Part shown: in pieces, positions 2,195 through 40,495 of the stretch
Layout: each line of letters starts with the position of its first letter
Numbering within the stretch: the stretch's first letter is position 1
Assembly (NCBI GenBank): GCA_963776085.1
Contig: CAVZMS010000079.1
Coordinates: 14,508 to 78,507, forward strand
Direction: 5' to 3'
From: an uncultured delta proteobacterium
Lineage (GTDB): Bacteria; Desulfobacterota; DSM-4660; Desulfatiglandales; HGW-15
Length of the DNA: 64,000 bases
The notes under the pieces: generated by a model
What the model was told of the DNA's origin: nothing
Database searches by the model: none
Seen by the model: only the letters and a program-made list of their open reading frames with translations
Translations under genes and position numbers: made by a program

Positions 2195-2196
2195 CA

Positions 2197-4095: not shown

Positions 4096-4147
4096 TAGGC
4101 TATCAAACTAGGCCCTGCTAATCCCATTTTGAAACAGGAGGCATGAG

Positions 4148-5857: not shown

Positions 5858-5890
5858 ACAACCGTGAGAATATATATAAAAGGAGAAATC

Positions 5891-7130
5891 TTGTTTTTTA
5901 AGGTCAAGACAGCCGAAGAAGTCCTTGAAATTCTTAAGAGTTTCTCTCCACTGGGAGAGGAGACCGTGTCCCTTGAAGACTCCATCAACCGTGTCCTCAG
6001 TCAAAAGATCGTTAGTCAAGAGGACCTCCCCGAGTTTCCCAGGTCTTCGATGGACGGTTACGCGGTCAGGGCAAGAGACACCTTTGGCGCCACAGAAGGG
6101 CTTCCCGCATCTCTGGAACTCGCAGGGGAGATACTCATCGGCAGGACCCCTGAGATATCGGTTGGTCCGGGCAAGGCAGTCAGGATACCCACCGGAGGGA
6201 TGATGCCTGAGGGTGCGGATGCGGTAGTCATGGTTGAATACTCTCATCCCCTGGATGATAAGACCATAGAGATCAGCCGTGCCGTATCTCCACTGGAGAA
6301 TGTTATCAATACCGGCGATGATTTCAGAAAAGGCGTAATGATATTTGAAAAAGGCGTCCTGTCTGAGGCCTCAGGACCTCGGTCTCCTAGCAGGGCTTGG
6401 CATATCCGCAGTCTCAGTCTACAAAAGGGCAAGGGTCGCAATCATCCCCACTGGTGATGAGATCGTCCCGATTGATCAAAGGCCCATGCCAGGCCAGGTG
6501 CGTGATATAAACAGTTATACATTGACCGCCTTCTGCCGCCAGGCCGGGGCAATACCCATCAACTTGGGGCTATGCAAAGACAACTTCGCCATCCTGAGGG
6601 AGATGGTTAAAAGGGGCCTTGATATTGCCGACACCCTGTGGATATCCGGTGGCAGTTCCATTGGGACAAGGGATATGACTGTAAAGGTCCTGGAGTCCTT
6701 TGATGACGTGGAAATACTTGTCCATGGCATATCAATAAGTCCAGGAAAACCCACAATAATCGCGAGGATCGGCAGCAAGGCCGTGTTCGGCCTGCCGGGA
6801 CATGCCGCCTCTGCCCTGGTAGTTGCTGAAATCTTCCTGACCCCGTTTTTATCAAGGTTGTCAGGTGATATTAATGCCTTTGAGGACACCCATTTTTATA
6901 TGGATGCCGAACTCACCCAGAATATAGAATCAGCAAGCGGCAGGGATGATTATATCAGGGTAAGACTTGAAAAAAGAGACGGGCGGTTATTCGCTGAACC
7001 GATCTTCGGCAAATCTGGGCTGATATCCACCCTGGTTGAGGCCCATAGTCTATTAAAGATAGACAGGAATACAGAGGGCCTTTATAAGGGACAGGCAGTA
7101 AAGGTAATGCTTTTTAAGGGCTATTCATGA
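5891..7130 (+). pseudogene. moeA: molybdopterin molybdotransferase MoeA, one frameshift
   Basis: MoeA motifs (SSMDGYAVRA, PTGGMMPEGADAVV, ISGGSSIG, PGKP). The frame changes near 6362 (ORFs 5840-6457 and 6345-7130). The likely start is TTG 5891 behind AAGGAG, because the ATG at 5840 lies inside the LHR repeat. Confidence 0.8.
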
Positions 7131-15258: not shown

Positions 15259-16083
15259 ATGAATAGCATAAATATCGGTTGGGATGATCTTGTTTTTGAT
15301 TACAGGCACAAAGATTATGGCGCCTATATTCTAAGATGCAACTATCCATTTAATGCAACAATGGCTGCCTTGATCGTTCTTGTGCTATTTGTATCCGGCA
15401 TGGTTGGTCTCAGATTATTTTATGCAAAAGGAACTATGGTATCAGGAACCAATATAACGAAAATCGGCTATATCGATTATGTGGATCTCAAAGCCCCGCC
15501 TCCTATTGAAAAGATTGAGCTTCCAAAACCGGCCGTTGTCAAGTATGCGTCGCCAAAGATAACCCAGGAAGAGGTAAAAGATGATGAAATGATGCCCACA
15601 ATAGATCAAGCGGCAGCAGCGCTTGAGACTGTATCGGATGTAGGTTCGGGATTTCCGGGCGGAATAAATGCCTTGATGAAATGGTTAAGTGAGAATCTAA
15701 GGTATCCGGCACTGGCTTTAAGATTGGGGATTGAGGGGAAGGTCGTGGTTGAATTTACGGTGGATGAAAACGGCAAGATCTCTGAAGCGATAGTAAGAGA
15801 GAGTCTTCATAGATTATGCGACCAGGAGGCTATACGTCTGATTAATGCTATGCCTGACTGGATACCGGCATCAAAAAAAGGGAGAAAGATTTCTAAAAAA
15901 TATATCCTTCCCATTCATTTTATTCTCCAGCAGAAGGGGAGAATGGGGGAGATCAAGACGTTTGTAATGACACATTATCCATCGCAAGGGCAGCTCGAAC
16001 GCATACATCTTGTAAAAGGGCAAGATCGCTTGATCGAAATCCATTTGGTGTTTCAAGCGAGTCAACATAGATTGCGCCTCTAA
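15259..16083 (+). CDS. TonB-family energy transducer (C-terminal TonB domain)
   Basis: N-terminal TM segment, a Pro-rich linker (KAPPPIEKIELPKP), and a TonB C-domain (YPALALRLGIEGKVVVEFTVDENGKI.., AMPDWIPA). The 3' ~50 codons after PIHFIL look non-native and overlap the convergent GAF gene by 131 bp. Confidence 0.7.
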   Translation: MNSINIGWDDLVFDYRHKDYGAYILRCNYPFNATMAALIVLVLFVSGMVGLRLFYAKGTMVSGTNITKIGYIDYVDLKAPPPIEKIELPKPAVVKYASPKITQEEVKDDEMMPTIDQAAAALETVSDVGSGFPGGINALMKWLSENLRYPALALRLGIEGKVVVEFTVDENGKISEAIVRESLHRLCDQEAIRLINAMPDWIPASKKGRKISKKYILPIHFILQQKGRMGEIKTFVMTHYPSQGQLERIHLVKGQDRLIEIHLVFQASQHRLRL

Positions 16084-16947: not shown

Positions 16948-19197
16948 TTAGCGCTCCTCAAGGGCCTCCAGTTCGGCATCGGTATGACGGAGGCGTTTTG
17001 CAATAGCAAGGGCCAGGCGGGCAAAAACCTGGACGCCAAAGACAGGGTCGGCATGGCTCTGTTCGTTTAAACGCGAACGGGAAAGGACATAGAGATCGGT
17101 CGGGACCTTCGCCTCAACGTCTGCCGAACGGATGCTGCCGTCTATAAACGATAGCTCACCGAAAAAGTCTCCCTGGCCAATTGTGGCAAGGTGATATTGC
17201 GTGTCCCCCTTCAGGGGCAGCAGGATCCGGACGCTGCCACGCCGTACAAGGTAGATCTTATCGCCAGGGTCACCCTGGGAGACGACCTTCTGTCCCTGCG
17301 GTACCGACACCTCCATTACACAGGCGGCCAGGCCGCTAAGCGTCTTCTCATCGAACTTTCGAAACAGTTCAAAGTCCTTCAGTTCAAGAGGTTGCGCGCT
17401 ATCTTCCATCGCCATGTTGTAGGCCTCTAAAATACGCTCCTCCATCCATTCCAGTGCGCTGTCGAGTGTCTCAGAGATCATAACGCCGCCTCCCTCCCTG
17501 ACAACACCCATCTGCGCCAGATAGCGCTCGAAGTCACGCTGGTCATGCAGGCCTGACGCCATTCCGGTGAACAAGAGACGTCCGCCGCGTTCCTCCAGCT
17601 GCGCCTGCATCTGTTCGAAGAGGTGGGCCGCGGTGTAGTCCATCGATTGGACCCGACGCATATCGAGGAGAATATAGCGCTTCGTCCTAAGATCGGTCTC
17701 CAGTTGCGTAAAAAGCTGGTCCGTGGTGCCGAAGAAGAGATTGCCCTGGAGTTCACAAAAGATCGCCTCGTCGCCATGCTGTCTAAGGACCTCTCTCTCC
17801 GCCTCAAGACGGCTGGTCTTTGAGGAGACCTGGTCCAGTCCCCTCTTCCGGCGGATGACCGAACCCCTGATCTGATCCCGGATAAACAATAAAATTGCAA
17901 GTGCTATACCAACCCCGGAAGCAGCGATCAGGTCAACGGTGACGGCGACAATGATCACCCCGGCGATCACGGCAAAGTCCAATCGCCCGGCAGGGTAGCG
18001 CAGCAGCCGTAACATGTTCCTCCAGTCAAACATCCGATAGGATATGACCAGCAGGATGCCTGCCAGTGCGCCGATTGGGACCCAGGCAACAAGTCGGCCC
18101 AGCAAGAGAAGGGTCATGACCACGAGTACGCCCTCAATCACGCCCGAACGAGGCGTTCGGCCGCCGCTGGTCACATTAACAAGGGTGGGACCCATTGTTC
18201 CGGCGCCCGGTATACCGCCGGCCATGAATGATACAAAGTTTCCGATCCCCTGACCCATAAGCTCGCGATCCGACTTGTGCCTGCTGCGTGTCAGGGCGTC
18301 GAGCACTACGCAGGTCTTCAATGTATCGATTGATAGCAGCACTGAAAGGGTAAGGGCAGGGATGAGGATGATCTGGATGGATATAAGGTCCACGGAAAGA
18401 AGGGATGTCACCCGACCCGTAACTGCCTCAAAAAAAGAGCCGGAGGTATGGATCGGCCCGATGATGAAGGGATTACCCTGCAGCTCCAGCAGCCCCGAAG
18501 AAAAAGAGGCAAGAACGAAATAGGCGAGAATCCCGCCCAAAAGGCCAAGGATGGGGGCAGGCACCTTTCTGGTAATCCTGGGTGTTGTTATCATTACCGC
18601 TATGGTGACAAGTCCGATGACTAGCCCCTGCCATTTCCATAGTTCCGGTGAGATCAACCCTTGGATAAGCGGTGTCCCTGTCGGCAGACCGAACAGTTTT
18701 GGGAGCTGGCCGAGGGCGATGATGACCCCGACCCCGGATAGATAGCCGCTAACTACCGGGTAAGGGACAAACTTGATCAATCGGCCTCCGCCTATGGCCC
18801 CGTAGAAGACCTGAAGCCCGGCTGAAAATAAAGCGGTCAGGGCCATCAAAGGAGGATATCAGCCGGATTGATACCCATTGGCACCTTCCAGCAAGAAGAC
18901 CGGCCACTAATGCGGACAGGACCGCTGCCGCCGGCGCGCAGGGGGCCGATATAAGTCCTCCTGTCCTTCCGAAAAGCGGTGCAATGAGGCCGAGTGCGGC
19001 CGCGCCAATGATCCCGGCCAAGGCCCCCTGCCCACATACTCGTTCCCCATGGCGGAGTATACGAGGACACCGAAGGCTATTGAGGATGGCAGCGCTACAA
19101 GCATGGCAGCCAGCCCGCCCCATAGATCATCGACCCATGATGATGTTATATGTTCAACCTGGGCAGTTTGATCGCTCATAAACGCATATCTCTCCAT
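16948..19197 (-). pseudogene. SulP-family anion transporter with C-terminal STAS and cyclic-nucleotide-binding domains, two N-terminal frameshifts
   Basis: Three frames: 19197-19020, 19123-18860 and 18849-16948. The SulP TM core is followed by STAS (..ILLDMRRVQSMDYTA..) and cNMP-binding (GDFFGELSFIDGSIRSADV) domains. The gene is visibly GC-richer than the flanking FHA/GAF genes. Confidence 0.85.
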
Positions 19198-19287
19198 TTA
19201 TTACAGAATACACTAATACAATCTTTTTTGGAATCCTGATAATAAATCTTTGAACTTTAGAATATTGAAGTTTATTCTTCTCTTCGA

Positions 19288-19330
19288 AATTCATCATTCA
19301 ATATTGGAAATTCAACATTCAATCCAATCC
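19288..19330. repeat. short ATTCAAN heptamer-periodic block
   Basis: attcatc attcaat attggaa attcaac attcaat ccaatcc. The reverse complement resembles 5418-5450 and the interior of LHR copy 7. Confidence 0.5.
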
Positions 19331-19493
19331 TTCTTCGCCATGCGTTCTGCCTCAATATACCAGTAAAGCAACACAGATGGAAGTGAATTTGAAAAATCAT
19401 ATCAAATTAAAATTAGAGTCTTCATATTCAGGATGGTGATCCGAAAATCGTTTAAATTTTAAAGAGTTATAAACATACATAAGAAAATTAGGG

Positions 19494-19523
19494 TTGACAT
19501 TACACCCTACTGTGATCTATTAT
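19494..19523 (+). promoter_or_regulatory. candidate sigma70-type promoter upstream of ppk1
   Basis: TTGACA (19494-19499), an 18-nt spacer, then TATTAT (19518-19523), about 190 nt upstream of the ppk1 ATG. Confidence 0.45.
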
Positions 19524-19715
19524 TTCAAAAAATTGCTGGGAAATATTTGATTTCACATCTGATTACAGCCCTGAACTCAATTCGGAATCCGTATTATTCG
19601 ATAAATCAGTATTTAATTAGTGAACTATTATCAATTCAATATTTCCCATTCCCCATTGAGTCAGTTCATTAACATGAGTCCCATTATCTGCATTGAACGG
19701 AGGATAAATGGATTT

Positions 19716-21857
19716 ATGGAAAAAGGAACCGCATCCGCGCTAAAAGAGGGAGAAATCAAACGTAATTCCCCAGATATCCTCATCAATCGCGAGTTAAGTT
19801 GGCTCAACTTCGCACGCCGCGTCCTTGCCCTGGTAGAAGACCCTAACGTCCCCCTGCTTGAGCGTGTCAAATTTGCCGGTATTATGGGCACACTATATGA
19901 TGAGTTTGCAATGAAACGTATCGGCGGGCTCAAGCGTGGGATTAAGAAAAAGAAACTATCCCACGGCGGACTGACGCCTACGGAGGAACTGCGCGCGTGC
20001 CAGAATGAATTGCACAGACAGGCTGTCCTTGTTTCCCGTCTGGTGCGTGATAAACTCCGGCCTGCTTTGGCGGAGGCAGGGATCCCTATTTTGGAATATA
20101 AGGATCTTAACAAGACCCAACGCGCACAGATGAAGCGATATTTCCGTAAATCAGTGGAGCCTATTCTTACGCCGTTAGCCGTGGACGTTTCGCATCCCTT
20201 CCCCTTAATCAGCAACCTCGGGATAAACATCGCGGTCATCGTGACGGAAAAGAAGAAAAAACGCAATCGTTTCGTGCGTATTAAAGTGCCGACAAACCGC
20301 CCTAGGTGGATTCCTATTCCCGAAAGTTCCGGTTATGTACCTTTAGAGCAGGTGATCGCATCCAACCTCAAAGTGATATTTCCCAAGGCCTCCCGAGTGA
20401 AGTATTATTTCTTCCGCTTAAACCGCGTGGTCGATGATAATCCATGGGCTCAAAGTATTCTGGATGATCCTGAAGCCGATCTTGCGCCAGGATCCCTCAT
20501 CGGTATGGTAACAAACGATCTGACGGCCCGAAAATTTGCCGGCGTGGTACGTCTCCAGGTTAGCTCAGGAATGCCTAAAAAGTTACAACGCTGGCTCGCA
20601 AAGCAGCTTAATGCCGACATAGAGGATCTTGAACAAACGGATGGCCTGTTGGGTCTTGTGGACCTGACGAAATTTCAAGTAGAGGGTCACCCGGAACTGC
20701 GCGATCCACCTCATGAACCCGTGACCCATCCTCGTCTGCGCCGTTTAGACCCCGACAATCCCTCAGAGATATTCGCTGAGATCTGTCGGGGCGATATCCT
20801 GCTTCATCATCCTTACCACAGCTTTGACACTTCCGTATTGCGTTTTCTGCAGTGCGCCGCAGTTGATCCTCAGGTGCTTGCCATCAAACTTACTATTTAT
20901 CGCACCAGCAGCCAATCTCCGATCATCCAGGCGCTGGTTGAAGCGGCTCGCCATGGCAAGCAAGTGGCAGTGCTGGTAGAGATAACCGCGCGCTTCGATG
21001 AAGAGCCCAACGTAGCATGGGGCAAATTATTGGAGAGGGAGGGGGTGCACGTCGCCTATGGTGTTGAGCGGCTAAAGACCCATGTAAAATTGGCCCTTGT
21101 CGTCCGCGAGGAAGAGGATGGTATTCGCCGCTATGTCCATGTAGGAACAGGCAATTATCACACAGTTACCGCCCGACTTTATGAAGACCTGGGCATCCTA
21201 AGCTGCGATCCGGAACTAGGCGCTGATGTCGCGACCCTATTTAATGAACTAACCGGTGCCATATCTTCTCCAGACTACAATAAGTTGATGGTGGCCCCAC
21301 ACAATATGTACGATCGATTCATCAGCTTAATCCACCGAGAGATCCAACATTGCCAAGAAGGGCGCCCTTCAGGGATTCGCGCCAAGATGAATCAGCTCCA
21401 GGACGAGCGCATCATTGGCGAACTCTATCGCGCCAGCCAGGCGGGCGTGCCGATCAGCCTCAATGTACGAGGGTTGTGCTGCCTGCGTGCAGGGGTCCCA
21501 GGGCTTTCTGAGAACATCCGCATCTTCAGCACACTCGGCCGTTTCCTGGAACACGGCCGTATATATCGCTTTGAAAATGGCGGTGAACCGGAATTCTTCA
21601 TAGGTTCGGCCGACTGGATGCGTCGCAACCTTGACCGTCGTATGGAAAGCATCATGCCCGTTACAGATCCCAAGATAAAACAGGAGTTGGAGGAGATCCT
21701 GCGCGTATTAGAGAACGACAACTATTCGGCCTGGGATATGCAGCCTGACGGCAGTTATGTGCTTCGGCATCCGCAGGAAGGCGAGGAATGTCGCGCCGCT
21801 CAAAAAGTGTTCATTGACCTTGCCAACAGGAAATCGCGGGGAAGGGGCAAGGCCTAA
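19716..21857 (+). CDS. ppk1: polyphosphate kinase 1
   Basis: The pattern NRELSWLNFARRVL.. and the two PLD-like C-terminal domains are typical of PPK1. I prefer ATG 19716 (GGAGGA upstream) over the ORF-track start at 19620. Confidence 0.92.
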   Translation: MEKGTASALKEGEIKRNSPDILINRELSWLNFARRVLALVEDPNVPLLERVKFAGIMGTLYDEFAMKRIGGLKRGIKKKKLSHGGLTPTEELRACQNELHRQAVLVSRLVRDKLRPALAEAGIPILEYKDLNKTQRAQMKRYFRKSVEPILTPLAVDVSHPFPLISNLGINIAVIVTEKKKKRNRFVRIKVPTNRPRWIPIPESSGYVPLEQVIASNLKVIFPKASRVKYYFFRLNRVVDDNPWAQSILDDPEADLAPGSLIGMVTNDLTARKFAGVVRLQVSSGMPKKLQRWLAKQLNADIEDLEQTDGLLGLVDLTKFQVEGHPELRDPPHEPVTHPRLRRLDPDNPSEIFAEICRGDILLHHPYHSFDTSVLRFLQCAAVDPQVLAIKLTIYRTSSQSPIIQALVEAARHGKQVAVLVEITARFDEEPNVAWGKLLEREGVHVAYGVERLKTHVKLALVVREEEDGIRRYVHVGTGNYHTVTARLYEDLGILSCDPELGADVATLFNELTGAISSPDYNKLMVAPHNMYDRFISLIHREIQHCQEGRPSGIRAKMNQLQDERIIGELYRASQAGVPISLNVRGLCCLRAGVPGLSENIRIFSTLGRFLEHGRIYRFENGGEPEFFIGSADWMRRNLDRRMESIMPVTDPKIKQELEEILRVLENDNYSAWDMQPDGSYVLRHPQEGEECRAAQKVFIDLANRKSRGRGKA

Positions 21858-21909
21858 CGAGTTAATTTTATACAGGCCGTCATGAACGGAATCTAATAAA
21901 AATCAAATC

Positions 21910-23494
21910 ATGCTCAAGAATATTAAATTCAATCTGCCAAGCGGATATGATCTCCAGCAATTAATCACCGGATTGGCCGATCAATATGCGATCAAAAAAG
22001 AGCCAGATCATGCTGCAATCGTCAGATTTTATGATACGTTTGACTGGCGATTATTCAACAAATCACTTGTTTTGTACACGTCCGGTGACAAGTTGTGCTT
22101 ACGCAAACTAACTAATTACGAAATTTTACACAGCGTTGAAATCACATCTCCACCCGTATTTATATGGGAGTTTCCAGATAGTGAATTAAAAAAACAACTG
22201 GCACCGATAATAGAAGTTCGGGCACTTTTAAAGCTTGTTGAGTTACGATCCCGAGCGACGCCTTATCGTATTTTAAACCAGGATGAAAAAACAGTCCTGC
22301 GATTGGCCTATGAAGAAATTCGATCCTCTCGTGATAAGAACGCCCCATCGCTGATGACTCATTTATGGCTGCAACCAGTTAAGGGATACCCCAAATATTC
22401 TCGAGAGGTAGCCAAACGATTCGAAGAAGCAGGGCTCACAATGAATAAAGAAGATGATATATATTTTAAAGGACTGGAGGCTGTTGATAGAAAACCGGGT
22501 AGTTATTCTGCAAAAATTGACATTCAACTCGATCCTGATATGCGCGCTGATAATGCAACCAGATCCATCTTGCGATTTTTATTGCGCATAATACGGATAA
22601 ACGAAACCAAGATTGAAAAGGACATTGATACGGAATTCGTTCATGATTTCCGTGTGGCTATTCGCAGAACCCACTCGGCGTTAGGCCAGATCAAATACGT
22701 CTTCCCGTCGAACATTACAAATCGTTTTAAAAAAAATTTTGCTTTTGTGGCCAACCTCTCCAATGAGTTAAGGGATCTGGATGTCTACCTTCTCAATAAG
22801 GATAAATACAAAACAAAGCTTCCACCTTTATTGCGTGACGACATTGATCCACTTTTTGACTATCTAAAGAAGAAACGATCAAAGGCGTTACAGAAACTCG
22901 TTCGCGGATTAAAGTCTAAAAAATATGCAAAGATTTTAAACGACTGGGAGGCATTTTTAAATAAACCGCAACCGGCTTCTGCAACTCAATCAAATGCTGC
23001 AGTCCACATAATTGATCTGGCACGCAAAAGAATTTATAAGAAATACCAAAGCGTTGTAAAGGCCGGCAACCTGATAAGCGAGAACACTGATGACAAGATG
23101 CTGCATGTTCTAAGAATTCATTGTAAAAAATTACGATATTTGATGGAGTTTTTCTCCGGTCTGTTTCCCTTCAAAAAGATTGACGCCTTGATTATGCAAT
23201 TAAAGAAATTACAGGACAACTTAGGGGTTTTTAACGATCTCCGTGTTCAGGAAGAACAGCTTTTGAACGATCACCAAGGAATTGCCTGTGATTAAGGGGC
23301 AGTCGGATAAAACACTTATGGCAATTGGGAGCCTTGTTGGAACCTTGGGCAGAGAAAGAAAGACAGTAAAAGATGTCTTTGCCAAGACCTTTATGGATTT
23401 CGCATCCCCGGCAAATAAAGAGTTATTCCAGGAACTTTTCGCCTCACAAACATCCAGGGTGTCTCATGACAATATTGGCCGTATACAGCAATAA
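21910..23494 (+). pseudogene. CYTH-like / CHAD two-domain protein, one frameshift near 23280
   Basis: The N-terminal ~190 aa have the CYTH-type FYDTFDWRL motif but no EXEXK. CHAD helices follow (VHDFRVAIRRTHSAL, LHVLRIHCKKLRYLMEFF). The last ~70 aa continue in another frame (23282-23494). Confidence 0.75.
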
Positions 23495-24212
23495 AGGCGG
23501 TGTTGGAAAGACCGCAGCAGCGGTGAATCTGTCCTATCTGGCATCACAGACAGGCGCTAAAACCCTCCTCTGCGATCTGGATCCTCAAGGTTCCGCAACC
23601 TATTATTTTCGGATAAAACCCAAACTTAGGTCCGGGGCAAAGGGATTGATTAAAGGAGGCAGGCAGGTTTATAAAAATGTTAAAGGCACAGATTATGAGA
23701 AACTGGATCTGCTGCCTGCGGATTTCTCCCTCCGCAATCTGGATATAACGTTTAATAAATTGAGGCGTTCAAAAAAAAGGCTGAGGAAAATCTTAACCCC
23801 GTTTAAGGGTGAATATGACCTTATCGTGCTGGACTGTCCGGTTACCATCAGCATCCTAGCTGAAAACATATTCAATGCCGTGGACTATATCCTTGTCCCC
23901 ATGATTCCAACAACGCTCTCCGTGCGCACCCATAGACAATTATTATCTTTCTGCAAAAAGAAAGGCTATAATACCAAAAAAATCTACACCTTTTTTTCAA
24001 TGGTCGATATGCACAAGAAGATGCACAAGGAACTTATGGCAACAGCATCAACGACGTTTGACAATGTCTTAGAAAACCTTATTCCTTATCTGGCACAGAT
24101 CGAAAACATGGGAATTCACCGCGAGCCGGTCGCAGTCTTCTCGCCAGCATCAACGGCTTCAAAGGCATATCAAGACCTATGGGACAGAGTTCAAAAAATT
24201 ATACTCTCTTAA
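23466..24212 (+). CDS. ParA/MinD-family P-loop ATPase (orphan, no ParB partner)
   Basis: 249 aa starting MTILAVYSNKGGVGKTAAAVNLS (deviant Walker A with signature Lys), Walker B LIVLDCP. It overlaps the CHAD gene 3' end by 29 nt. Confidence 0.85.
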   Translation: MTILAVYSNKGGVGKTAAAVNLSYLASQTGAKTLLCDLDPQGSATYYFRIKPKLRSGAKGLIKGGRQVYKNVKGTDYEKLDLLPADFSLRNLDITFNKLRRSKKRLRKILTPFKGEYDLIVLDCPVTISILAENIFNAVDYILVPMIPTTLSVRTHRQLLSFCKKKGYNTKKIYTFFSMVDMHKKMHKELMATASTTFDNVLENLIPYLAQIENMGIHREPVAVFSPASTASKAYQDLWDRVQKIILS

Positions 24213-24243
24213 AAAGTTCAAGACATCATATTATGAGGATGCT

Positions 24244-24702
24244 ATGGCCAAGGAGATCGAAAGGAAATTCCTGTTAAAGGGAGGCTTCTGGCCACATGAA
24301 ACTGTAATGAGATGTCGCCAGGGTTTTTTAAACAGCTTTAAAGAGAGGACTGTGCGTGTGCGCACCATAGGCGATAAAGGTTACTTGACCGTAAAGGGAA
24401 TTGCGGTTGGGGCATCCCGCATGGAATTTGAATATGAAATACCCTACCAAGACGCCATTACACTACTGGACATCTGTGAAAAACCCCTGATTGAGAAAAA
24501 CCGTTATAGTGTAAAGGAAGGAGATCTTATCTGGGAAATTGACGAATTCTTCGGAGAAAACCAGGGATTAATCATTGCCGAAGTGGAATTGGAGAGCGAA
24601 GATCAAGAGTTCCCCAAACCGGATTGGGTTGGGGAGGAGGTAACCGGAGACCCTCGCTATTTCAATGCCAACCTGATTAAAAATCCCTATACAAAGTGGT
24701 AG
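24244..24702 (+). CDS. CYTH-domain triphosphate tunnel metalloenzyme
   Basis: 152 aa with N-terminal EIERKFLL (EXEXK motif) and typical CYTH strand pattern (RVRTIGDKGYLTVKG.., EFEYEIP). Confidence 0.85.
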   Translation: MAKEIERKFLLKGGFWPHETVMRCRQGFLNSFKERTVRVRTIGDKGYLTVKGIAVGASRMEFEYEIPYQDAITLLDICEKPLIEKNRYSVKEGDLIWEIDEFFGENQGLIIAEVELESEDQEFPKPDWVGEEVTGDPRYFNANLIKNPYTKW

Positions 24703-24714
24703 AGGAAATAAATC

Positions 24715-25212
24715 ATGAAAATCCTTTATCTGGTCAGACATGCCAAATCAAGCTGGAAATATACCGAGCTGGACGATTTTGAGAGACCCCTAAACAGGCG
24801 TGGCAGAGAGAGTCTTATTTTAATGGGGGAATTTCTGAAAAAAGTTGAGGTGGCGCCGGACCTGATAATATCCAGCCCGGCAACAAGGGCTGCCATGACT
24901 GCAAGGATTATTGCCGATACGATCAATTACCCTCTCGAAAAAATTCTATATAACGAAACAATTTATTTATCCGATGAAGATGTCTTACTCCATGTTATTC
25001 AAGATATAAACGATGACGTGAAAAAGGCGATGTTAATCGGGCATAACCCGGCATTGACTGATTTAGGCAACTATATAAGTGACCAACGGATCAGTAATAT
25101 CCCTACCAGTGGCATATTTTGCTTGGAATTCAACATTTCATCATGGCTAAAGATTGGCGAGCGCTGCGGCAGATTGAAATTCTTTGAGTTTCCTAGGAGG
25201 CACGCTACATGA
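24715..25212 (+). CDS. SixA-type histidine phosphatase
   Basis: 165 aa with N-terminal LYLVRHAKS (RHG/RHA catalytic motif) and GHNP near residue 110. Confidence 0.8.
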   Translation: MKILYLVRHAKSSWKYTELDDFERPLNRRGRESLILMGEFLKKVEVAPDLIISSPATRAAMTARIIADTINYPLEKILYNETIYLSDEDVLLHVIQDINDDVKKAMLIGHNPALTDLGNYISDQRISNIPTSGIFCLEFNISSWLKIGERCGRLKFFEFPRRHAT

Positions 25213-25224
25213 TTTCCGCTGCAT

Positions 25225-25947
25225 TCAATTCAATTTTTTTCCCGCCCTGAACATCTTCACATAAATATCAGGAAGGTGGTGCTTTTTCAGCCCCCTAACT
25301 ACCTCTTCCACCGGATAGGGAATTCGAAAATGTTCCACGATTATATTTTTTGATGAAAGCTTAAGAACTGCAAAAGATGCCCGTGGATCCCCATCAAACA
25401 TGCGCCCTGCACTGCCGGGATTGATGAAATGAACTCCATCGACGATTTTATAATAGGGCACATGAGAATTGCCCATGATGTGAATCTGATAAGGAGAGGA
25501 TTTTGATAGTCGACGGAAACGGCTTTCAGGAGAAAAGGGGAACAGCAACTCATCCGGATCATCAATTGTCCCATGAAATACCCCGATGCGGATATGGCCT
25601 ATGATAAGATTCGTCTGTTTGGGTAAAGAGTTCAGATATGATCTATTCTCAGGAAGCAAGATGTCGGATGTCCAAAAATACATCACCCGCTTTTCTTCTT
25701 TTTTCGGGGTCTTTAACTTCTTGCCCTTTAAAATCCTTAGAACCAGCCGATCAGTATTCCCTAATATGCTGATGCTTTTCCCCTTCTCACGAAACCATTG
25801 GATCGTTTCATTGGGGAAAGTACTATAAACCGTGAAATCCCCCGTGTTAATAATCCAATCAAATCCGGCAGGCTTGATGTACTTCTCTATCGCTTTTAAG
25901 GCCGGATAATTTGCGTGAATATCGCCTAGTAAAAGTATTTTCTTCAC
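25225..25947 (-). CDS. metallophosphoesterase (calcineurin-like, YfcE/MJ0936-like)
   Basis: 240 aa with motifs LLGDIHAN, NTGDF, GNTD, HGT and GNSH. Confidence 0.8.
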   Translation of the reverse strand: MKKILLLGDIHANYPALKAIEKYIKPAGFDWIINTGDFTVYSTFPNETIQWFREKGKSISILGNTDRLVLRILKGKKLKTPKKEEKRVMYFWTSDILLPENRSYLNSLPKQTNLIIGHIRIGVFHGTIDDPDELLFPFSPESRFRRLSKSSPYQIHIMGNSHVPYYKIVDGVHFINPGSAGRMFDGDPRASFAVLKLSSKNIIVEHFRIPYPVEEVVRGLKKHHLPDIYVKMFRAGKKLN

Positions 25948-25953
25948 AACAGA

Positions 25954-26529
25954 TCAGGAGCTGGTTTTTTTGAGTATTTTAGAAAACGACTGTAGTTTCC
26001 GGGATAATTTTTTACATTTTCGCCTTTTTGGTTTTTTCCCCAAATCTTTCAACATTGCATTCAAGGCATAGGCCTTTTTGACTATATTTTTCGAATCCTT
26101 CTTGGAAAGCGTTTTATCTGTTTGATCCAATCCATCAAGCCGTTTCATGAGGGTTTTGGCCCTTTTTTTAAAATCGATATATAATTCATGATACTTCTTT
26201 TTTCCCAAGGACTTTAGATCTTCACTTGCCCGTTTTAAACTCCTTTTAAGAACCCTGATCTGTTTTTTTAAATCCTGCTTGACCTCAATACCCTTCTTCT
26301 CTCCGCCTGATACGGTATCCGGGGCTGTTTTCTCAGGTTTTTCCCCATAAGATTCACTAACGGCATCCTTTATCAATTTTGCATAATATCCGCCAATGGT
26401 TTCTATCTGGGCCAGTTTATCCAGTGGCGTTTCATAAAGCTGTTTAATGGTTGTGATCCCCAAATTATTGAGCGATTTCATACGTGAAGCACCGATATAT
26501 TTCACCTGAGTAAGATCGTCCGTCTTCAT
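25954..26529 (-). CDS. helix-hairpin-helix domain protein with long Lys/Arg-rich helical tail
   Basis: Start at MKTDDL (GGAGG SD). The N-terminus (VKYIGASRMKSLNNLGITTIKQL) is HhH-like. The C-terminal ~110 aa are extremely basic (KKQIRVLKRSLKRA.., KKPKRRKCKKLSRKL). I recognise no family. Confidence 0.6.
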   Translation of the reverse strand: MKTDDLTQVKYIGASRMKSLNNLGITTIKQLYETPLDKLAQIETIGGYYAKLIKDAVSESYGEKPEKTAPDTVSGGEKKGIEVKQDLKKQIRVLKRSLKRASEDLKSLGKKKYHELYIDFKKRAKTLMKRLDGLDQTDKTLSKKDSKNIVKKAYALNAMLKDLGKKPKRRKCKKLSRKLQSFSKILKKTSS

Positions 26530-26648
26530 AATTACCTCCTTGTGTAATGGCCGCATCCCGTAGCCGTTTTTAAAACGCCTTAGATTCTGCCAGGTCCTAT
26601 ATTATTAAAGACCGTTAGGTCCCTAATTCCATACACCCTAAATCGATA

Positions 26649-28129
26649 CTACAATGCCGCCTCAATGGTATCACACAGGGTCTTCAGAACTTTAATGCGT
26701 GCATAATATTTGCTGTTGCCTTCAACTATTGTCCATTGAGCGATATCGGTACTGGTGCGATCTACCATATCGCAGACAGCCTGTTCATAAGCATCCCATT
26801 TCTCTCGGTTACGCCAGTCTTCCTCGGTGATCTTAAAGCGCTTGAACCCGATCTTCTCCCTCTCTTTGAACCGCCGAAGTTGTTCCTCCTTGCTTATAGC
26901 CAGCCAGAATTTGACGATCAGTATATTGTTCCTCACTCAGTTGTTCCTCAAAGTCATTTATTTCGCTGTATGCCCGCATCCAGTCCGCTTCCGAACAATA
27001 TCCTTCCACCCGCTCCACGAGTACCCGGCCATACCAGGTGCGATCGAAGATGGTAACCCTCCCTTTACCGGGCACATGCCGCCAGAAACGCCACAGATAG
27101 GGCTGAACCTTTTCCTCATCGGTGGGGGCGGCAACCGGGATAATGTTGTAATATCTGGCATCGAGCGCGGCCGTGACCCTGCGTATATTTCCTCCCTTGC
27201 CGCCCGCATCGGCACCCTCATAGGCCACGACGAGCGACATCCTTTTCTTGAACTCGGGGCTCCGCATGAGTATGTTCAGCCGACCCTGGTATTTCAACAA
27301 TTCTTTCTTGTATGCCGCCTTTGTCAATGTCAGGGACATGTCCAGTGACCTGAGCATATTGAGCTTGTCGACACGGGGAGGCAAAGGTGCCGTCACGACC
27401 GCTGCCGGAGGCTTTTTATACTCCAGCCGTTTACGCAGGGTTTCAAGCAGGATCTTGCCCACTGTAAGGCTGCGATAACGTGCATCGACCCCTTCCACAA
27501 TGATCCAGGGGGCTACACCGGTGCTTGTTTCACGCAGTGTATACTCCGACCACTTGCGGAACCTATCGTATATCTTGAAACGCTCCCAGTCTGTATCGTT
27601 CACCCGCCAGCGCATCTTCGGGTCTTTTTCCAGAGCCTTCAGGCGCTTCTCCTGGGCCTTTTTAGAGAGGTGAAACCAGAATTTGATGATAACCGCCCCT
27701 TCATCCGAGAGCATCTTTTCGAAACGGTTTATCTCATCGATCCTCTGGTCAAGCTCCTCTTTCTTGCCCTTCCCGACAACACGATTGATGATGGGGTACG
27801 TGTACCAGGACCCGAAAAATATCCCGATTTTGCCCTTGGGCGGCAGGGCCTGCCAGAAACGCCACATAGGCGGCCGCTCCTTTTCCTCCGGGTTCGGCTC
27901 TCCCATGGCATGGACCTGAATATTGCGCGGATCCATCCATTCGTTGAGCAGGTTAACGGTTTCACCCCTCCCTGCGCCGTCCACACCGCCCGCCAGTATG
28001 ATCACAGGGAAGGTAGCGGTTCTCTGCCAGATCGAACTGGGCATTGAGGAGGGCTTCCCTCAGTTCAGGCACTTCCTTTTCATAAGTCTCTTTGTCAATC
28101 TTGTGTCCAAGTTCCGCTGACTCAAACAT
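26649..28129 (-). pseudogene. ppk2: two-domain polyphosphate kinase 2 (PAP/class II-like), two frameshifts
   Basis: The true start appears to be MFESAELGHKIDKETYEKEVPELREALLNAQF at 28129 (GGAGG SD), with shifts near 28020 and 26900. The N-domain P-loop is degenerate (GVDGAGRGET); the C-domain P-loop is intact (GADAGGKGGNI). Confidence 0.85.
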
Positions 28130-28491
28130 TTCAACCTCCTTGGTCTTGAATTGTTCAAAAGTAAATATGATAAATGTTTTTTGTCAAAATATCAGAAAAA
28201 TATTTATTTGTAAATAAATATAAACCTTATGTTATCTATATTACTTCTTGCCAAGACGCTCCAAATGAATGCCTGCCCACCGCTCTGAACTTTTTTATAA
28301 AATGCGTTTTTACTATCTTCCGTCGCATGTGCACAAAAAATTGTGATCCATGCACAAAATTATATGCAATATCCTCCTCTCATGAAAATCATCACTTATC
28401 ATCCTTCGTTTATTCCATGCTTAAATGTAAATCGATTCTTTCTGATAACCTTATGAAATAATGAGGGAATCAGCTTTTTTGCCCATGATGG

Positions 28492-28985
28492 GGGACGTCC
28501 TTAAATAAGTAAATAACATGACAAGATTTTATTGATATGCTATTTATTAAAGCATGCTAAGACAATCTCGATTAGAAGCACCGGGGTTTTGCACCATGCC
28601 ATTATCAGGGGCATAGAACGCCGCAAGATATTCAGTGATGACAAGGACGGGGACAACTTTATTGAACGGCTTGATATCCTCCTGCCCAAAGCCCATATCA
28701 CATGCTATGCATGGGCTCTCTTATCCAATCATGCATATTTCCTATTCAAAACCGCAAAACCCATGAAAATGGGGACGGGAGCCGGATAATGGCAAGGGTT
28801 GATGCAAGGGGTTTATATTGCTACTGGGCGGCAAGAGAGCTGAGATATCCTTTGGCAGAACTTGCCAGAAGATTGAACATAAAGGCTCCCGGAGTTGTAT
28901 ATGCTGTCAGAAGAGGCGAAAGTATCTCCAAAGAGTCTGATTACAACTTGATAGATTGAGTTAGTTACTTAATTAAGGACGTCCC
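28492..28985 (+). mobile_element. decayed RAYT/IS200-like (Y1 HUH transposase) element bounded by 26-bp inverted repeats
   Basis: Left end GGGACGTCCTTAAATAAGTAAATAAC (28492-28517) versus reverse complement of the right end GGGACGTCCTTAATTAAGTAACTAAC (28960-28985): 24 of 26 identical. Confidence 0.7.
28532..28959 (+). pseudogene. REP-associated tyrosine transposase-like gene remnant (internal deletion)
   Basis: N-terminal piece LHHAIIRGIERRKIFSDDKDGDNFIERL..CYAWALLSNHAYFLF, where the HUH position reads HAY. The C-terminal piece in another frame is GLYCYWAARELRYPLAELARRLNIKAPGVVYAVRRGE (HTH). The catalytic middle is missing. Confidence 0.7.
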
Positions 28986-29330
28986 TCTCAAGCTCATAAA
29001 AAAAGTGCTAAAGACGAAAAAACTGTTTTTTAATACATTCGGATATGCTATAGGATCAATTTAATATACATATTCATTTATATTTAATTATTTGATTCCC
29101 CTATCAATTCAAACAAATGAAAATTGTAACCCAATTTCCTGTCCACTTTTAATTGGGACCATAAATCATCAGCGGGACTGGTAGAGCTAAATTGAAAATA
29201 GCTATTTATAAATGAGTACGATTCGTCAGATTTTTTGATCTTCAATATTATATCTACCGTATCATTTTCGTATAATATGTATTAAGACGTATCAGCAATT
29301 AAGCATAAAGAACACTTTCTTCCAGGAGGA

Positions 29331-37083: not shown

Positions 37084-38178
37084 TTATGGCCTATGATACT
37101 TATAATAGGCCGCGCATGTCCCTTCACTTGAGACCATGCACGGTCCAACAGGTTGGACAGGGGTGCAGACCTTTTTATACAAGGGACAATCAATGGGTGT
37201 CTTCAGGCCTATTATTATATCTCCGCACGCACAACCCTTCGGCTCTTCGGGTTCCGGCACATGAAATTCCAGCATCTTTTTAGCGTCAAATTCCTTAAAA
37301 TCTTCTTTTACCGTGAGACCACTTTCAGGTATTATGCCTATTCCCCTCCAGTTCAGCATCGGTCTTCTCAAAGACATCCCCTATTATTTTTTGAGCCTTT
37401 CTATTGCCTTCTGATGTGACAATTCTCTGATATCCGTTTAATAGCTCGGCCCTTCCTCCCTCTATCTGCTCGATTAGTGAATATATCACCTGGAGAATAT
37501 CCATGGGCTCAAACCCGGAGATCACCGATGGGACGCGGTACTTATTAAAAAAAGGCCGATAACCTTCGGTCCCGATGATCACCGAGACATGCCCCGGCAG
37601 GATAAATCCGTTTACCCTTATACCAGGCTTTTCCATAAGGGCGGTTAATGCGGGCGGTATAAGTTTGTGTGCCGAATAGACATAGAAATTTTTAAGGTTC
37701 ATATTACGCGCTGATATAACTGATGGCTGCTACGGTCGGCGCTGTGGTCTCGAAACCCACACCTGCAAAGACCACCTTTTTATGCGGATTATTCCTTCGC
37801 GATCCTTAATGCGTCAGTGGTGGAATAGACCATGCGTATATCACGCCCTTTCGCACGCTCCTTCTGAAGGGATGACCTGGTCCCCGGCACCCTTATCAGG
37901 TCTCCGAAGGTCGCCAGGATAACATTATCCATCCCTGCGATCTCGATAAATGAATCAATATCCAAAAGACTTGTGACACACACGGGACAGCCAGGGCCTG
38001 AAATAAGTGAGATCGTCTCTGGCAGCAATCCCCTGATGCCGCTCCTGAAGATCGAGACCGTGTGTGTGCCGCAGACCTCCATGAGGCAGACAGGTCTCTT
38101 ACTGATCCTCTTTATATTATCGGCGATTTTCCTGCAGATATCAGGCGCCCTGTAATCCTCTAAATATTTTATGGACAT
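37084..38178 (-). pseudogene. hypD: hydrogenase maturation protein HypD, three frameshifts
   Basis: Segments are 38178-37795 (MEVCGTHT, GPGCPVCV), 37795-37705 (FAGVGFETTAP), 37702-37350 and 37377-37084 (C-terminal CxxC..PxHVS-like region). Confidence 0.88.
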
Positions 38179-38197
38179 AGATTCTCCATCCGCGTGA

Positions 38198-40495
38198 TCA
38201 TCTCCGTGCTATTGCGGCGGCGACCATTGCCTGCCCGAGGCAGATACCTCCGTCATTGGTCGGGACAATCCTGTGGCTAAAGACCTGAAGGCCTCTGTCT
38301 TCAAGTGCCTTGGTCAAACCTGTAAGCAGGATGGAATTTTGAAATACCCCTCCGCTCATTACCACCCTTTTGATATCCCTTTCCCTGCTCACAATCTCAC
38401 ATATGTCGCTAAACAACCTGATCAAGCGTGCAATGGAATTTCGCGCTGATTTCGGAAGGCCTTATCCCCTTCAGGAAATCTTCAACTACACCCCGCACAA
38501 TAGGCCGGGGCATAATCCTGTAATATTCGCCTGACTCCCATTCATAGTTATAATGTGCCTCCGTGATCTGATCCGCCGCCATCTCCAGCTCCATTGCGGC
38601 CTGACCCTCAAAATAGACCCTGCTTCTTACTCCCGTAATGGCGGCGATCCCGTCAAATAACCGGCCAAGGCTGGATGTAAGGGGCGAATTTATGCCCTTG
38701 GAGATCATCTTAATTATGGTTTCCATGCTTTTTTTCACCTGTCTCTCTTATGACAGGAATACCGAGTTCCCGCAACCCTTCCCCATAGGCGTCATAAAGG
38801 TAACTGACTGCCATCCTCCATGGTTCCTTTATAGCGGCCGCTCCTCCCGGCATAGGCGTATATGACAGAGCAGCAGCCCTTGAAAAGCCTTTCTCATCCG
38901 CAACAAGCACTTCCCCTCCCCAGATTGTACCGTCCAGTCCGTAACCTGTCCCGTCAAAGGAGAGCCCGATAACATCACCTTGCAGACTATTTTCCGCCAT
39001 ACAACTCACAATATGCGCATGGTGATGCTGGACCTGTATCTTTTTGATATCTGCCTGTTCTTCCGCATAGCGCGTGCTCAGATAATCCGGATGAAGGTCA
39101 TAGGCTATTATCTCAGGGTCTATGCGGAGTATCTGTTTCAAATGCCTGATTGTCATTTGAAAGAACTCGTAAGAAGCGAGGTTTTCCAGATCCCCGATGT
39201 GCTGGCTTAGATAGGCCTTATCCCCCTTTGCTAAGACAGACCGTATTTTTTAATTCCGCGCCGCAGGCAAGGACCGGCGGGAGATCGGCCTTTAAGAATA
39301 CAGGCATTGGCACATATCCCCTTGAACGGCGTATAACCCTTGTGGCACCTGCAGTCCGCCTTATTATGGAGTCGTCGCTTCGCAGATAGATATCCCTGTT
39401 ATGTATCAAAAAGAGATCCGCAATATTTGAAAGACGGTCAAAGGCCTCGTCGTTGTCAATGGCAATAGGCTCGTCGCTTATGTTTCCGCTTGTCATGACA
39501 AGGGCAATGAAATCATACTGCAACAGAAGGTAATGCAGCGGCGTGTAAGGCAGCATGACCCCGAAATATCTGTTCCGCGGGGCTACGTTCTCCGCGATAC
39601 GATTTGGGCGCTTTTTTCTCAGCAAGACAATGGGGCGCTGAACGGATATGAGCAGTTCCTCTTCCGCGGGATCCACATAGGCATATTTACGTATATTTTC
39701 CACATCATAGGACATTATGGCAAACGGCTTCTCTTCACGTTGTTTCCTTTCCCTGAGCAGTGCAACCGCCTCTCCATTCTCTGCATCCGCAACAAGGTGA
39801 AACCCTCCCAGACCCTTAATAGCCAAGATTTTGCCCTTTTTCACGAGTTCGATGGCCTGCCTTATGGGATCTATTGTCTCTATAGAATTTCGACGATTAT
39901 CATATAATCTGACTTGTGGACCGCACTCCCGGCAGGCATTTGGCTGGGCGTGGAACCTCCTGTTTCCCGGATCATCATATTCAGCCTGACATCTGGCGCA
40001 CATGTAAAACTTTGCCATAGAGGTGTAGGGCCGGTCATAGGGGATATTATTAATTATTGTATAACGAGGTCCGCAGTTGGTACAGTTGATGAAAGGATAT
40101 CTGTATCGGCGATCTTCAGGATCCAGCATCTCCCTGAGGCAATCTTTGCAGATTGAGATATCAGGGGATATAAGGGTGGAAAAGGCATCTCGGTTTATGC
40201 TCTTTGCAATGGCGAATTCCTTGAAATTCCTGACAGGTGCGGATTTGGATAAGATCTCCGTTATATATGCCAGCGGCGGGCGTTTTTCATGAAGGTCCCT
40301 GGAAAAGGAGTCAATATCCCCTTTAATGCCTTCAACATGCAATGAAACGCCTGTGGTCGTGTTGGATATCTTCCCCTTCAGGCCGTAATGAAGCGCAAGC
40401 CTGTAGACAAACGGACGAAACCCTATTCCCTGAACAACACCCTTTATCGTAAAACTGCGCGCAACGAAATCCTTTTTCATGGCCTCGTCCATCAC
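38198..40495 (-). pseudogene. hypF: carbamoyltransferase HypF, three frameshifts
   Basis: Acylphosphatase domain, two zinc fingers (CKDC..CTNCGPRY; CARCQAEY..CRECGP), YrdC-like and Kae1-like parts, spread over ORFs 40495-39218, 39156-38710, 38738-38409 and 38425-38198. Confidence 0.9.

Follow-up and report, generated by a model that had tools for sequence, protein, structure and literature searches.

The 64,000-nucleotide stretch of DNA analyzed here, called the window below, comes from an uncultured delta proteobacterium (contig CAVZMS010000079.1 of assembly GCA_963776085.1) and holds, between positions 19716 and 28129, an island of eight genes that we assign to inorganic polyphosphate (polyP), in which the gene of a CHAD protein overlaps that of a ParA-like ATPase. 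These eight genes had been listed in an earlier note on the same DNA; all of them lie where that note placed them, and each is supported by Pfam and NCBIfam profile scans of the open reading frames (ORFs) of the window, read against curated cutoffs. Operon A, on the plus strand, comprises ppk1 for polyphosphate kinase 1, the polyP synthase (19716..21857, 713 aa); the gene of a two-domain putative phosin, in which a degenerate triphosphate tunnel metalloenzyme (TTM)/CYTH fold precedes the CHAD domain (21910..23494, 527 aa once repaired, as explained below); the gene of a ParA/MinD-family ATPase from a basic, CHAD-linked subfamily (23466..24212, 248 aa); that of a stand-alone CYTH/TTM enzyme (24244..24702, 152 aa); and that of a SixA-like histidine phosphatase (24715..25212, 165 aa). 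Operon B, on the minus strand, is convergent on operon A and encodes a two-domain polyphosphate kinase 2 (PPK2) of class II, the polyP:AMP phosphotransferase type (26649..28129, 492 aa once repaired), a helix-hairpin-helix (HhH)/Lys-rich protein (25954..26529, 191 aa), and a calcineurin-like metallophosphoesterase (MPP) of the YfcE family (25225..25947, 240 aa).

The packing described earlier, with plus-strand gaps of 53 nt or less and a second group converging on the first, agrees with our measurements: along operon A, 52 nt after ppk1, an overlap of 29 nt between the CHAD and ParA-like genes, then 31 and 12 nt; and 12 nt between the stops of the SixA-like and metallophosphoesterase genes, where a terminator scan, itself no better than shuffle expectation, returned nothing between the two operons. 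PPK1 shows all four of its Pfam domains (PP_kinase_N, PP_kinase, PP_kinase_C_1, and PP_kinase_C) and scores 722.7 bits on TIGR03705 for an equivalog cutoff of 465.85, which secures the identity given to it before; its start at ATG 19716 has GGAGG upstream, and homology to the PPK1 of a relative (L083; L numbers are our handles for the loci compared) starts at the same point. Upstream of ppk1, the best promoter-like site of the region 19000-28600 (TTGACA-18-TATTAT, 19494..19523, plus strand, 11/12 matches) begins at the start coordinate given in the earlier note, 19494; it is suggestive only, because the total number of such sites found by the scan of that region (23) is within shuffle expectation (17.9 +/- 3.6).

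Two of the eight genes are interrupted as written, a point that the earlier gene list had overlooked while giving the genes themselves correctly. The CHAD gene is split into ORFs of 461 and 70 aa by a 1-nt insertion near 23269, and the PPK2 gene runs through three frames, with 1-nt insertions near 26937 and 28015-28017. We located these sites by comparison with two collinear, independent short-read metagenome contigs, L001, which is 86-89% identical to the window in DNA and has both genes intact (CHAD 527 aa, PPK2 493 aa), and L087, which is 96.7% identical over 24709-28231 and has an intact PPK2 gene (492 aa). Removing the three bases gives a CHAD protein of 527 aa and a PPK2 of 492 aa.

One could take these frameshifts at face value and see a decaying gene cluster in which both genes have become pseudogenes, a view that would draw on three uncompensated insertions in two genes out of eight and on the fact that none of the three (23269, 26937, 28015-28017) falls in a homopolymer run. 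We find it improbable: neither gene is broken in relatives at 87-97% DNA identity, neither stop codons nor larger deletions were seen in the CHAD and PPK2 genes, and the proteins remain well conserved after the shifts: PPK2 is 96.8% identical to that of L001 over its last 95 aa, which follow the 26937 insertion, for a DNA identity of 86%. Similar single-base insertions are also scattered in the hyp, Pyr_redox, and FlpD genes of the window, and HypF, 759 aa long in L087, is left there without any ORF of at least 150 aa despite 91% DNA identity to the intact copy. The three frameshifts in the CHAD and PPK2 genes are, thus, most likely sequencing or assembly errors, since the relatives are intact and like insertions occur throughout the window. 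Programmed frameshifting was also considered for both genes and ruled out, as close relatives are in frame at these places and like insertions occur in unrelated genes. More generally, isolated single-base indels, mostly insertions and outside homopolymers, are found throughout the window when compared to L001 and L087 (other sites are 29919, 31413, 31947, 32116, and, in the hyp genes, 37354-40685, and the Pyr_redox, FlpD, and HypF genes are fragmented). This pattern resembles a random-insertion error profile of the assembly, and every ORF call in the window therefore needs care.

The earlier note had made the reality of the cluster depend on the conservation of its gene order, and this order is kept in L001, L083, L085, L087, and L003-L006. 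The genome of L083 (“Deltaproteobacteria bacterium”) holds the complete set of eight in two convergent blocks arranged as here, together with three additional small genes, and even shares with the window the flanking gene of a SulP-STAS transporter with a cyclic-nucleotide-binding domain; all eight are also present in L085, with operon B reordered to HhH-MPP-PPK2-PPK2, and L001 and L003-L006 have most of them, as far as their contigs extend. The supercluster is nevertheless modular, because L084 and L086 hold operon B (HhH-MPP-PPK2) alone and L002 holds only CHAD-ParA-guanylate kinase-CYTH. What stands of the single supercluster proposed earlier is, thus, a real and conserved island made of two separable operons, not an obligate unit, and the two operons are contiguous in a fairly narrow Desulfobacterota-like clade only. 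In this clade, operon A can hold genes that the window lacks: a 54-aa Lys/Cys-rich protein encoded between CYTH and SixA-like in L083 (7667-7831) and L085, and found in L004 and L005 too, and a 200-aa protein with no Pfam match, encoded between ParA and CYTH in L083 (8415-9017) and L003.

In order to judge co-occurrence, a set of 80 CHAD-anchored metagenome loci (477 kb) was set against 446 kb of control ParA loci. ParA was found in 55 of the 80 loci, SixA-like in 24, PPK1 in 18, PPK2 in 16, and CYTH in 13; the controls contained no PPK1, PPK2, CHAD, CYTH, metallophosphoesterase, SixA-like, or HhH/Lys-rich gene, so that the genes co-occur at a rate well above background, contrary to the refuting condition set in the earlier note. 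Counts for SixA-like and for the N-terminal part of the CHAD protein come from single-pass phmmer searches, the iterated hidden Markov models having been discarded after they drifted onto CHAD proteins, in the first case through a CHAD-His_Phos_1 fusion of Entotheonella and in the second through full-length ORFs used as input. Taken together, we are highly confident that the island is genuine, evolutionarily conserved, and correctly assigned to polyP.

The tightest association concerns the CHAD and ParA-like genes. Our survey of ParA, with one genome per species, gave 80 loci in two groups, one at 40-73% identity, which amounts to 52 loci once L001 and L002 are added, and one at 36% or less, which provided 30 control loci. 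A CHAD protein is encoded directly next to ParA in 48 of the 52 orthologue loci vs. none of the 30 controls (Fisher p = 2e-18); these adjacent proteins are about 510-530 aa long, and their gene is nearly always immediately upstream of parA. The commonest junction is a 4-nt overlap between the CHAD stop and the ParA start (26/46 loci); the overlap reaches 29 nt in the window. When the question was reversed, with CHAD as anchor in metagenome contigs, 64 loci had sufficient flanking sequence on either side, and ParA was adjacent to CHAD in 55 of them. The orthologue loci of the ParA survey that have CHAD next to ParA belong to Desulfobacterota, Poribacteria, Chloroflexota, Binatia, Entotheonella, Calditrichota, Alpha-, Beta-, and Gammaproteobacteria, Pontiella (Kiritimatiellota), and Actinomycetota. 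The ancient and widely conserved core of the system is, thus, a translationally coupled CHAD-ParA pair, often accompanied by CYTH, in about ten phyla.

Around this core, the genes for PPK1, PPK2, Ppx, NUDIX, SixA-like, and CYTH proteins are arranged differently from one phylum to another. The order is PPK2-CHAD-ParA-PPK1 in a member of Calditrichota (L014) and CHAD-ParA-CYTH-NUDIX-HhH/Lys-Ppx-PPK1 in Colwellia (L034, 8471-16331); PPK1 is divergent from CHAD-ParA in three delta proteobacteria (L016, L018, and L033); and in Entotheonella (L012, 10884-13067), ParA is followed by a CHAD protein fused to His_Phos_1, then by PPK2. In Pontiella (L029, 10757-11155), a NUDIX gene comes after ParA.

It may be asked whether the ParA-like and HhH/Lys-rich genes belong to such an island at all or are passengers, devoted to chromosome or plasmid partition and to DNA repair, that happen to sit in a phosphate and energy neighborhood with which they have a loose functional relation. 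Source annotations do read “chromosome partitioning protein”, “DNA repair”, or “nuclease-like”, and operons A and B are apart in some relatives. An adjacency of 48/52 vs. 0/30, and of 55/64 in the reverse direction, maintained across about ten phyla, with stop and start codons that overlap, speaks strongly to the contrary, as do the absence of ParB beside the CHAD-linked ParA, the presence of a canonical parAB pair elsewhere in the window, and the fact that the HhH/Lys-rich gene always stands beside those for the metallophosphoesterase and PPK2; passenger genes are, thus, a very improbable explanation. A partition module of a plasmid or mobile element was ruled out as well: ParB is missing, the contexts are chromosomal (Mb-scale contigs), and the canonical parAB pair is found elsewhere in the window.

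The CHAD protein itself was correctly recognized in the earlier note, its CHAD domain (PF05235) scoring 170 bits for a gathering score of 25.6, and its residues 198-512 match CtCHAD (6qv7) and 3e0s with an E-value of about 1e-57. CHAD domains bind polyP and localize to granules (PMC6537752), and by analogy with CtCHAD and other CHAD domains, we predict the same of the protein of the window. Its family is large, comprising 1,720 or more clusters at 50% identity (E <= 1e-30), and the top 150 members are mostly 505-530 aa long. The N-terminal domain (residues 1-200) was less easy to identify, as it has no Pfam match at E <= 10; none of 47 family members matches Pfam CYTH (PF01928), the N-terminus matches no Pfam family in any of them, and hhalign gives a probability of 0.7% against the profile of the stand-alone CYTH. 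In the AlphaFold2 model of the protein (pLDDT 89, pTM 0.80), this domain has a triphosphate-tunnel fold, and its top Foldseek matches are TTMs (6yp4, 8h92, 5a60, 5a64, and 7nsf; E 1e-6 to 1e-5, TM 0.5-0.6) from plant, mammalian, archaeal, and bacterial proteins, including E. coli YgiF (5a60). The ExExK site reads LKNIKF, with the Lys kept and both Glu replaced, and family alignments show no conserved Glu at this position; the basic residues R47, R104, K127, and R131 are conserved. The CYTH-like N-terminus reported earlier, thus, holds at the level of the fold, not at that of a PF01928 match or of the ExExK glutamates. Since the metal-binding glutamates are lost and the basic residues conserved, the tunnel domain probably binds without cutting.

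As for the ParA-like ATPase (AAA_31, 117 bits; CbiA), it has a deviant Walker A motif that includes the signature lysine, SNKGGVGKT (residues 8-16), and a Walker B motif, LDCP (122-125), with K10, K15, and D123 invariant in the alignment of the subfamily. Its overall similarity is closest to Soj/ParA-type partition ATPases, and it stays below all NCBIfam cutoffs (ParA_partition, MinD, BcsQ, RepA, and SopA; for example, 77 vs. 180 and 58 vs. 158). Homologues number in the thousands, the top 120 being 75-96% identical. What sets the subfamily apart is its charge, with a mean net charge of +12.1 and an isoelectric point (pI) of 9.5 vs. -1.3 and 6.7 in control ParAs (p = 8e-12), together with a specific FYFRvKP motif and a conserved K184 next to the canonical DNA-binding Arg position. 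An ordinary chromosomal pair, parA (AAA_31, 220 bits) and parB (ParB_N, HTH_ParB, and ParB_C), lies at 1430-3042 of the window, and the CHAD-linked ParA is therefore an additional, specialized paralogue; the net charge is +4 for the former ParA vs. +17 for the latter.

Such a basic protein suits direct polyP binding, and we had to consider that it may be no positioning motor but an ATP-dependent switch or assembly factor acting on polyP itself, which would nucleate, cap, size, or dissolve granules or gate the access of PPK and PPK2 to them, its matrix being polyP and not the nucleoid. Some relatives of ParA and MinD, such as BcsQ and FlhG, are localization or assembly factors; the window protein has weak BcsQ matches in the Pfam and NCBIfam scans, the family is strongly basic throughout (mean net charge +12, pI 9.5), and no separate adaptor was found. 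On the other hand, the deviant Walker A motif and the overall similarity point to Soj/ParA-type partition ATPases, and an ATPase tightly coupled in translation to a protein of the granule surface is what one typically finds in a positioning system made of ATPase and adaptor, where the partner gene is adjacent and co-inherited, as we observed here (48/52 vs. 0/30; 55/64). We, thus, regard a direct action on polyP as unlikely, though it is the alternative to which we would give the most room, and prefer the positioning of granules.

The stand-alone CYTH, whose sequence starts with MAKEIERKF and, thus, carries the ExExK motif (EIERK), scores 55 bits on PF01928 for a cutoff of 23.2. Its best matches in the PDB are 3typ and 2fbl, that is, NE1496 or NeuTTM (E 1e-16), and NE1496 itself is the CYTH gene that immediately follows CHAD-ParA in Nitrosomonas europaea (L026; E 3e-99). 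Judging from sequence and gene order, the stand-alone CYTH is the positional orthologue of NeuTTM, which is a specific inorganic triphosphatase (PMC3440374); our literature search found the neighborhood of NE1496 nowhere linked to ParA or CHAD. An enzyme of this type would remove tripolyphosphate ends or products. This bears on a proposal made for the ppk-parA-(CYTH-CHAD) cluster of Acidithiobacillus (PMC6416229), by which the module would be a cyclic AMP signaling device, with the CYTH domains acting as adenylate cyclases of class IV under the control of polyP via CHAD. A SulP transporter with a cyclic-nucleotide-binding domain does flank the cluster in the window and in L083; with both ExExK glutamates missing from the tunnel domain of the phosin, and with NeuTTM, a specific inorganic triphosphatase (PMC3440374), as the positional orthologue of the other CYTH, we give this proposal very little chance.

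The SixA-like protein belongs to His_Phos_1 (42 bits for a cutoff of 21.7) and has the RH motif (LVRHAKS), in line with the phosphatase family assigned to it before; it does not reach the SixA equivalog cutoff (TIGR00249, 57.2 bits vs. 74.5), and the name SixA is, thus, to be read loosely. Its gene is near CHAD in 24 of the 80 metagenome loci and is fused to that of the CHAD protein in Entotheonella (L012). PPK1 works through a phospho-histidine intermediate (Ahn and Kornberg 1990, as cited in PMC6537752), which the SixA-like enzyme might reset. The calcineurin-like phosphoesterase of the earlier note is confirmed by Metallophos_2 (72.5 bits) and placed in the YfcE subfamily by TIGR00040 (60.8 bits for a cutoff of 56.25), and its gene directly follows the HhH/Lys-rich gene in L001 and L083-L087. 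No Ppx homologue was found within the 64-kb window, and it is for this reason that we propose the metallophosphoesterase as a candidate polyphosphatase. There is a precedent in yeast, where Ppn2 is an endopolyphosphatase of the metallophosphatase family.

PPK2 has two PPK2 domains (Pfam), and, after removal of the two inserted bases, the protein matches TIGR03708 over its full length (profile positions 1-493; 747.6 bits for a cutoff of 547.65), so that its earlier description as a two-domain PPK2 is upheld. The two P-loop strings reported then are indeed in the sequence, an intact GGKGGN in the C-domain and GAGRGET in the N-domain; L001 and L083 have GAGKGET at the latter place, and the degeneracy of the N-domain is therefore not a trait of the family. 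The Arg of the window could be genuine or could reflect one more base error. Several relatives have two separate single-domain PPK2 genes in place of the fused gene. PPK2 would draw on the polyP store to regenerate ADP from AMP. In relatives, single-domain PPK2 and PPK1 carry Lys-rich N-terminal extensions (L005, 12492-14630; L083, 11593-13821), and L004 has next to PPK2 a 104-aa ORF made almost purely of Lys (15341-15655); the Lys-rich tails of PPK2 and PPK1 may be polyP anchors.

In the AlphaFold2 model of the HhH/Lys-rich protein, a putative (HhH)2 domain at the N-terminus is joined by a disordered linker to a Lys-rich C-terminal part of four helices (34% K+R). The window protein matches HHH_5 (PF14520) at 20.3 bits, below the gathering cutoff of 27, and some homologues carry a precomputed PF14520 match. 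Residues 6-61 of the model superpose at 1.3-1.7 A on the N-terminal domains of RadA/Rad51 and on NusA AR2, with a Foldseek E-value of about 1; the whole model has no significant Foldseek match, only its N-terminal HhH part aligning locally. The homologues number 296, are nearly all 191 aa long, and are 62-97% identical. In the CHAD-ParA cluster of Colwellia (L034), a non-homologous protein combines DKKVSKKA repeats with an HHH_5 domain (E 6e-9) that precedes them. Lys-rich proteins of DNA-binding type are known from storage granules, such as PhaM and PhaF in those of polyhydroxybutyrate. In Pseudomonas aeruginosa, the Lys-rich protein AlgP promotes the even spacing of polyP granules (PMC9239181). 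The HhH/Lys-rich protein could, in its Desulfobacterota-like clade, tether DNA to polyP, in a role comparable to that of AlgP or PhaM.

How, then, could these parts work together? PPK1 would build polyP granules, which the phosin would coat through its CHAD domain, its tunnel domain holding phosphate chains or chain ends without cutting them. The basic ParA-like ATPase would dimerize on ATP, bind a polyanionic matrix (the nucleoid, possibly polyP itself), and, coupled to the granules via the phosin, space and partition them as McdA-McdB does carboxysomes. Overall, we hold a conserved polyP island, with the CHAD-ParA core as a granule-positioning system of inferred mechanism, to be the best explanation, with the odds somewhat in its favor. 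For the positioning role of the ParA-like ATPase taken separately, by analogy with known systems, the chances are close to even; a full version, in which CHAD-ParA is a dedicated partition and positioning system for polyP granules, with the phosin and its dead tunnel as adaptor, in about ten phyla, and with the HhH/Lys-rich tether in some lineages, is put forward tentatively, as slightly short of an even bet.

One has to keep in mind several points that weigh against this interpretation. The pairing of CHAD and ParA is frequent, not obligate, because about 14% of the loci of the CHAD family have no ParA (L108, L111, L116, and others) and 4 of the 52 ParA loci have no CHAD, one of these (L054) being a partial ParA match only. 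No ParB- or McdB-like adaptor with a recognizable stimulatory N-terminal peptide was identified, and the N-terminus of the CHAD protein is not conserved in the alignment of its family. Homologues of the HhH/Lys-rich protein were found in Desulfobacterota-like loci only, with the non-homologous analogue in one Colwellia locus, and the roles proposed for the metallophosphoesterase and the SixA-like protein are drawn from family analogy and context alone. Finally, the spacing of polyP in Synechococcus does not need a ParA (PMC13081873), and a ParA mechanism, therefore, cannot be universal.

The placement and inheritance of polyP granules in bacteria is a question for which the CHAD-ParA locus is a concrete and widespread candidate. 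An April 2026 preprint by authors of work on carboxysome McdAB calls the mechanism of polyP positioning yet to be discovered (PMC13081873), and the literature on the organization of polyP granules that we consulted up to 2026 likewise calls it unknown and mentions no polyP-linked ParA (PMC11894788, PMC13081873); the only known placement factor for these granules is AlgP of Pseudomonas (PMC9239181). Our search for a ParA dedicated to polyP returned only two passing mentions, both from Acidithiobacillus (PMC6416229, PMC10892726). If the proposal is true, CHAD-ParA would supply the mechanism described as undiscovered in 2026 and would be the first ParA/MinD system with an inclusion of inorganic polymer as cargo. 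The idea is directly testable, since organisms that can be cultured carry the module, among them Nitrosomonas europaea, roseobacters, Colwellia, Desulfobacter latus, and probably Acidithiobacillus. The locus also gives the orphan enzyme NeuTTM a setting among polyP genes, delimits a large family of putative phosins with a degenerate tunnel domain, and lengthens the list of candidate polyP parts for bacteria of the sulfate-reducer type, which extends from synthesis, AMP rephosphorylation, and end-trimming to a candidate phosphatase and to tethering and positioning.

Several features around the island deserve mention. The Na/Pi cotransporter reported at 54363-56204 is present, with its PhoU domain, 26 kb from the polyP cluster; a Na/Pi cotransporter is found about 6.5 kb from the PPK2 gene of operon B in L087 (1-1825), with the hyp genes between, and about 1-2 kb from the PPK2 genes of operon B in L084 (14433-16232), which suggests that phosphate uptake is linked to the polyP genes in a looser, rearranged manner. 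The SulP-STAS transporter with a C-terminal cyclic-nucleotide-binding domain (16948-19197, minus strand) flanks ppk1 divergently, likewise in L083; its N-terminal part is covered by overlapping ORFs in different frames and may hold another indel. Relative to L001, the window has an insertion of about 1 kb at 28229-29259, between the PPK2 and Pyr_redox genes, where two overlapping 85-aa ORFs in different frames resemble a Y1 transposase of the IS200/RAYT type (Y1_Tnp, a weak match at E 0.037). A repeat of about 240-290 bp, which resembles a miniature inverted-repeat transposable element, has terminal inverted repeats of about 30 bp (GTCCCGCAGGGATCTCTTTTCAGAGGCGAAA ... TTTCGCCTTCGAAAAGAGATCCCTGCGGGAC) and a GC-rich internal palindrome; copies lie in the window at 40972-41256, 57951-58176, and 5578-5822 (minus strand), in L001 at 3916-4202, where the copy separates the CYTH gene of the polyP cluster from the SixA-like gene, and in L087 at 5701-5897. 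It has no Rfam match, and the Rfam scan of the window returned a tRNA only.

Several parts of the island can be compared to known systems. PPK2 resembles class II PPK2 (TIGR03708) in its two fused domains and full-length match, the window copy differing by the K-to-R change in the N-domain Walker A motif and by its two frameshifts, probably artefacts. With NeuTTM (NE1496; 2FBL, 3TYP), the stand-alone CYTH shares its best structural-database match and its position after CHAD-ParA; at E 1e-16, it is a relative and not a near-identical protein, and its activity is predicted from sequence. E. coli YgiF (5A60), a TTM-CHAD tripolyphosphatase, has the same domain order as the phosin, tunnel then CHAD, with the difference that its tunnel has a catalytic ExExK and is recognized by Pfam CYTH, whereas the phosin family has 0/47 such matches and has lost both Glu. 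CHAD genes have been known in polyP operons since 2002 (Iyer and Aravind, as cited in PMC6537752), and CHAD stands beside polyP enzymes here as in the operons and phosins already described (Iyer and Aravind 2002 and Tumlirsch and Jendrossek 2017, both as cited in PMC6537752); what sets it apart is the tunnel domain fused to it, which is catalytically degenerate, and the translational coupling of its gene to that of a dedicated ParA. AlgP and the HhH/Lys-rich protein are both Lys-rich, of DNA-binding type, and tied to storage granules, in the second case by proposal, and have no sequence homology: the latter combines a putative (HhH)2 domain with a conserved helical Lys-rich part at a fixed 191 aa, AlgP has disordered repeats of the KPAA type, and the Colwellia analogue carries simple Lys repeats, unlike the window protein.

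The closest neighborhood on record is that of Acidithiobacillus, where ppk1, parA, and CHAD are neighbors conserved in the genus and the CHAD protein has an N-terminal CYTH-type domain. This ppk-parA-CHAD neighborhood was drawn in 2019 and 2024, with parA taken to be a partition gene and without any role in polyP assigned to it (PMC6416229, PMC10892726). Going by the published descriptions, to which our comparison was made, it was described in that one genus only, parA was labeled a chromosome or plasmid partition gene, and PPK2, the stand-alone CYTH, SixA-like, metallophosphoesterase, and HhH/Lys-rich genes were not mentioned. Among systems that position cargo, McdA-McdB and other ParA/MinD pairs likewise encode a deviant-Walker-A ATPase beside a protein that binds the surface of an inclusion; here, the cargo would be a granule of inorganic polymer, and the ATPase, much more basic than ParAs usually are, has as its partner a CHAD phosin with no relation to McdB or ParB; the positioning function is proposed from the genes. 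Set against all these precedents, what appears new is how widely and how tightly CHAD and ParA are coupled, the degenerate state of the tunnel domain, and the place of NeuTTM in the CHAD-ParA module, to which the basic ParA subfamily and the HhH/Lys-rich family also appear to be added.

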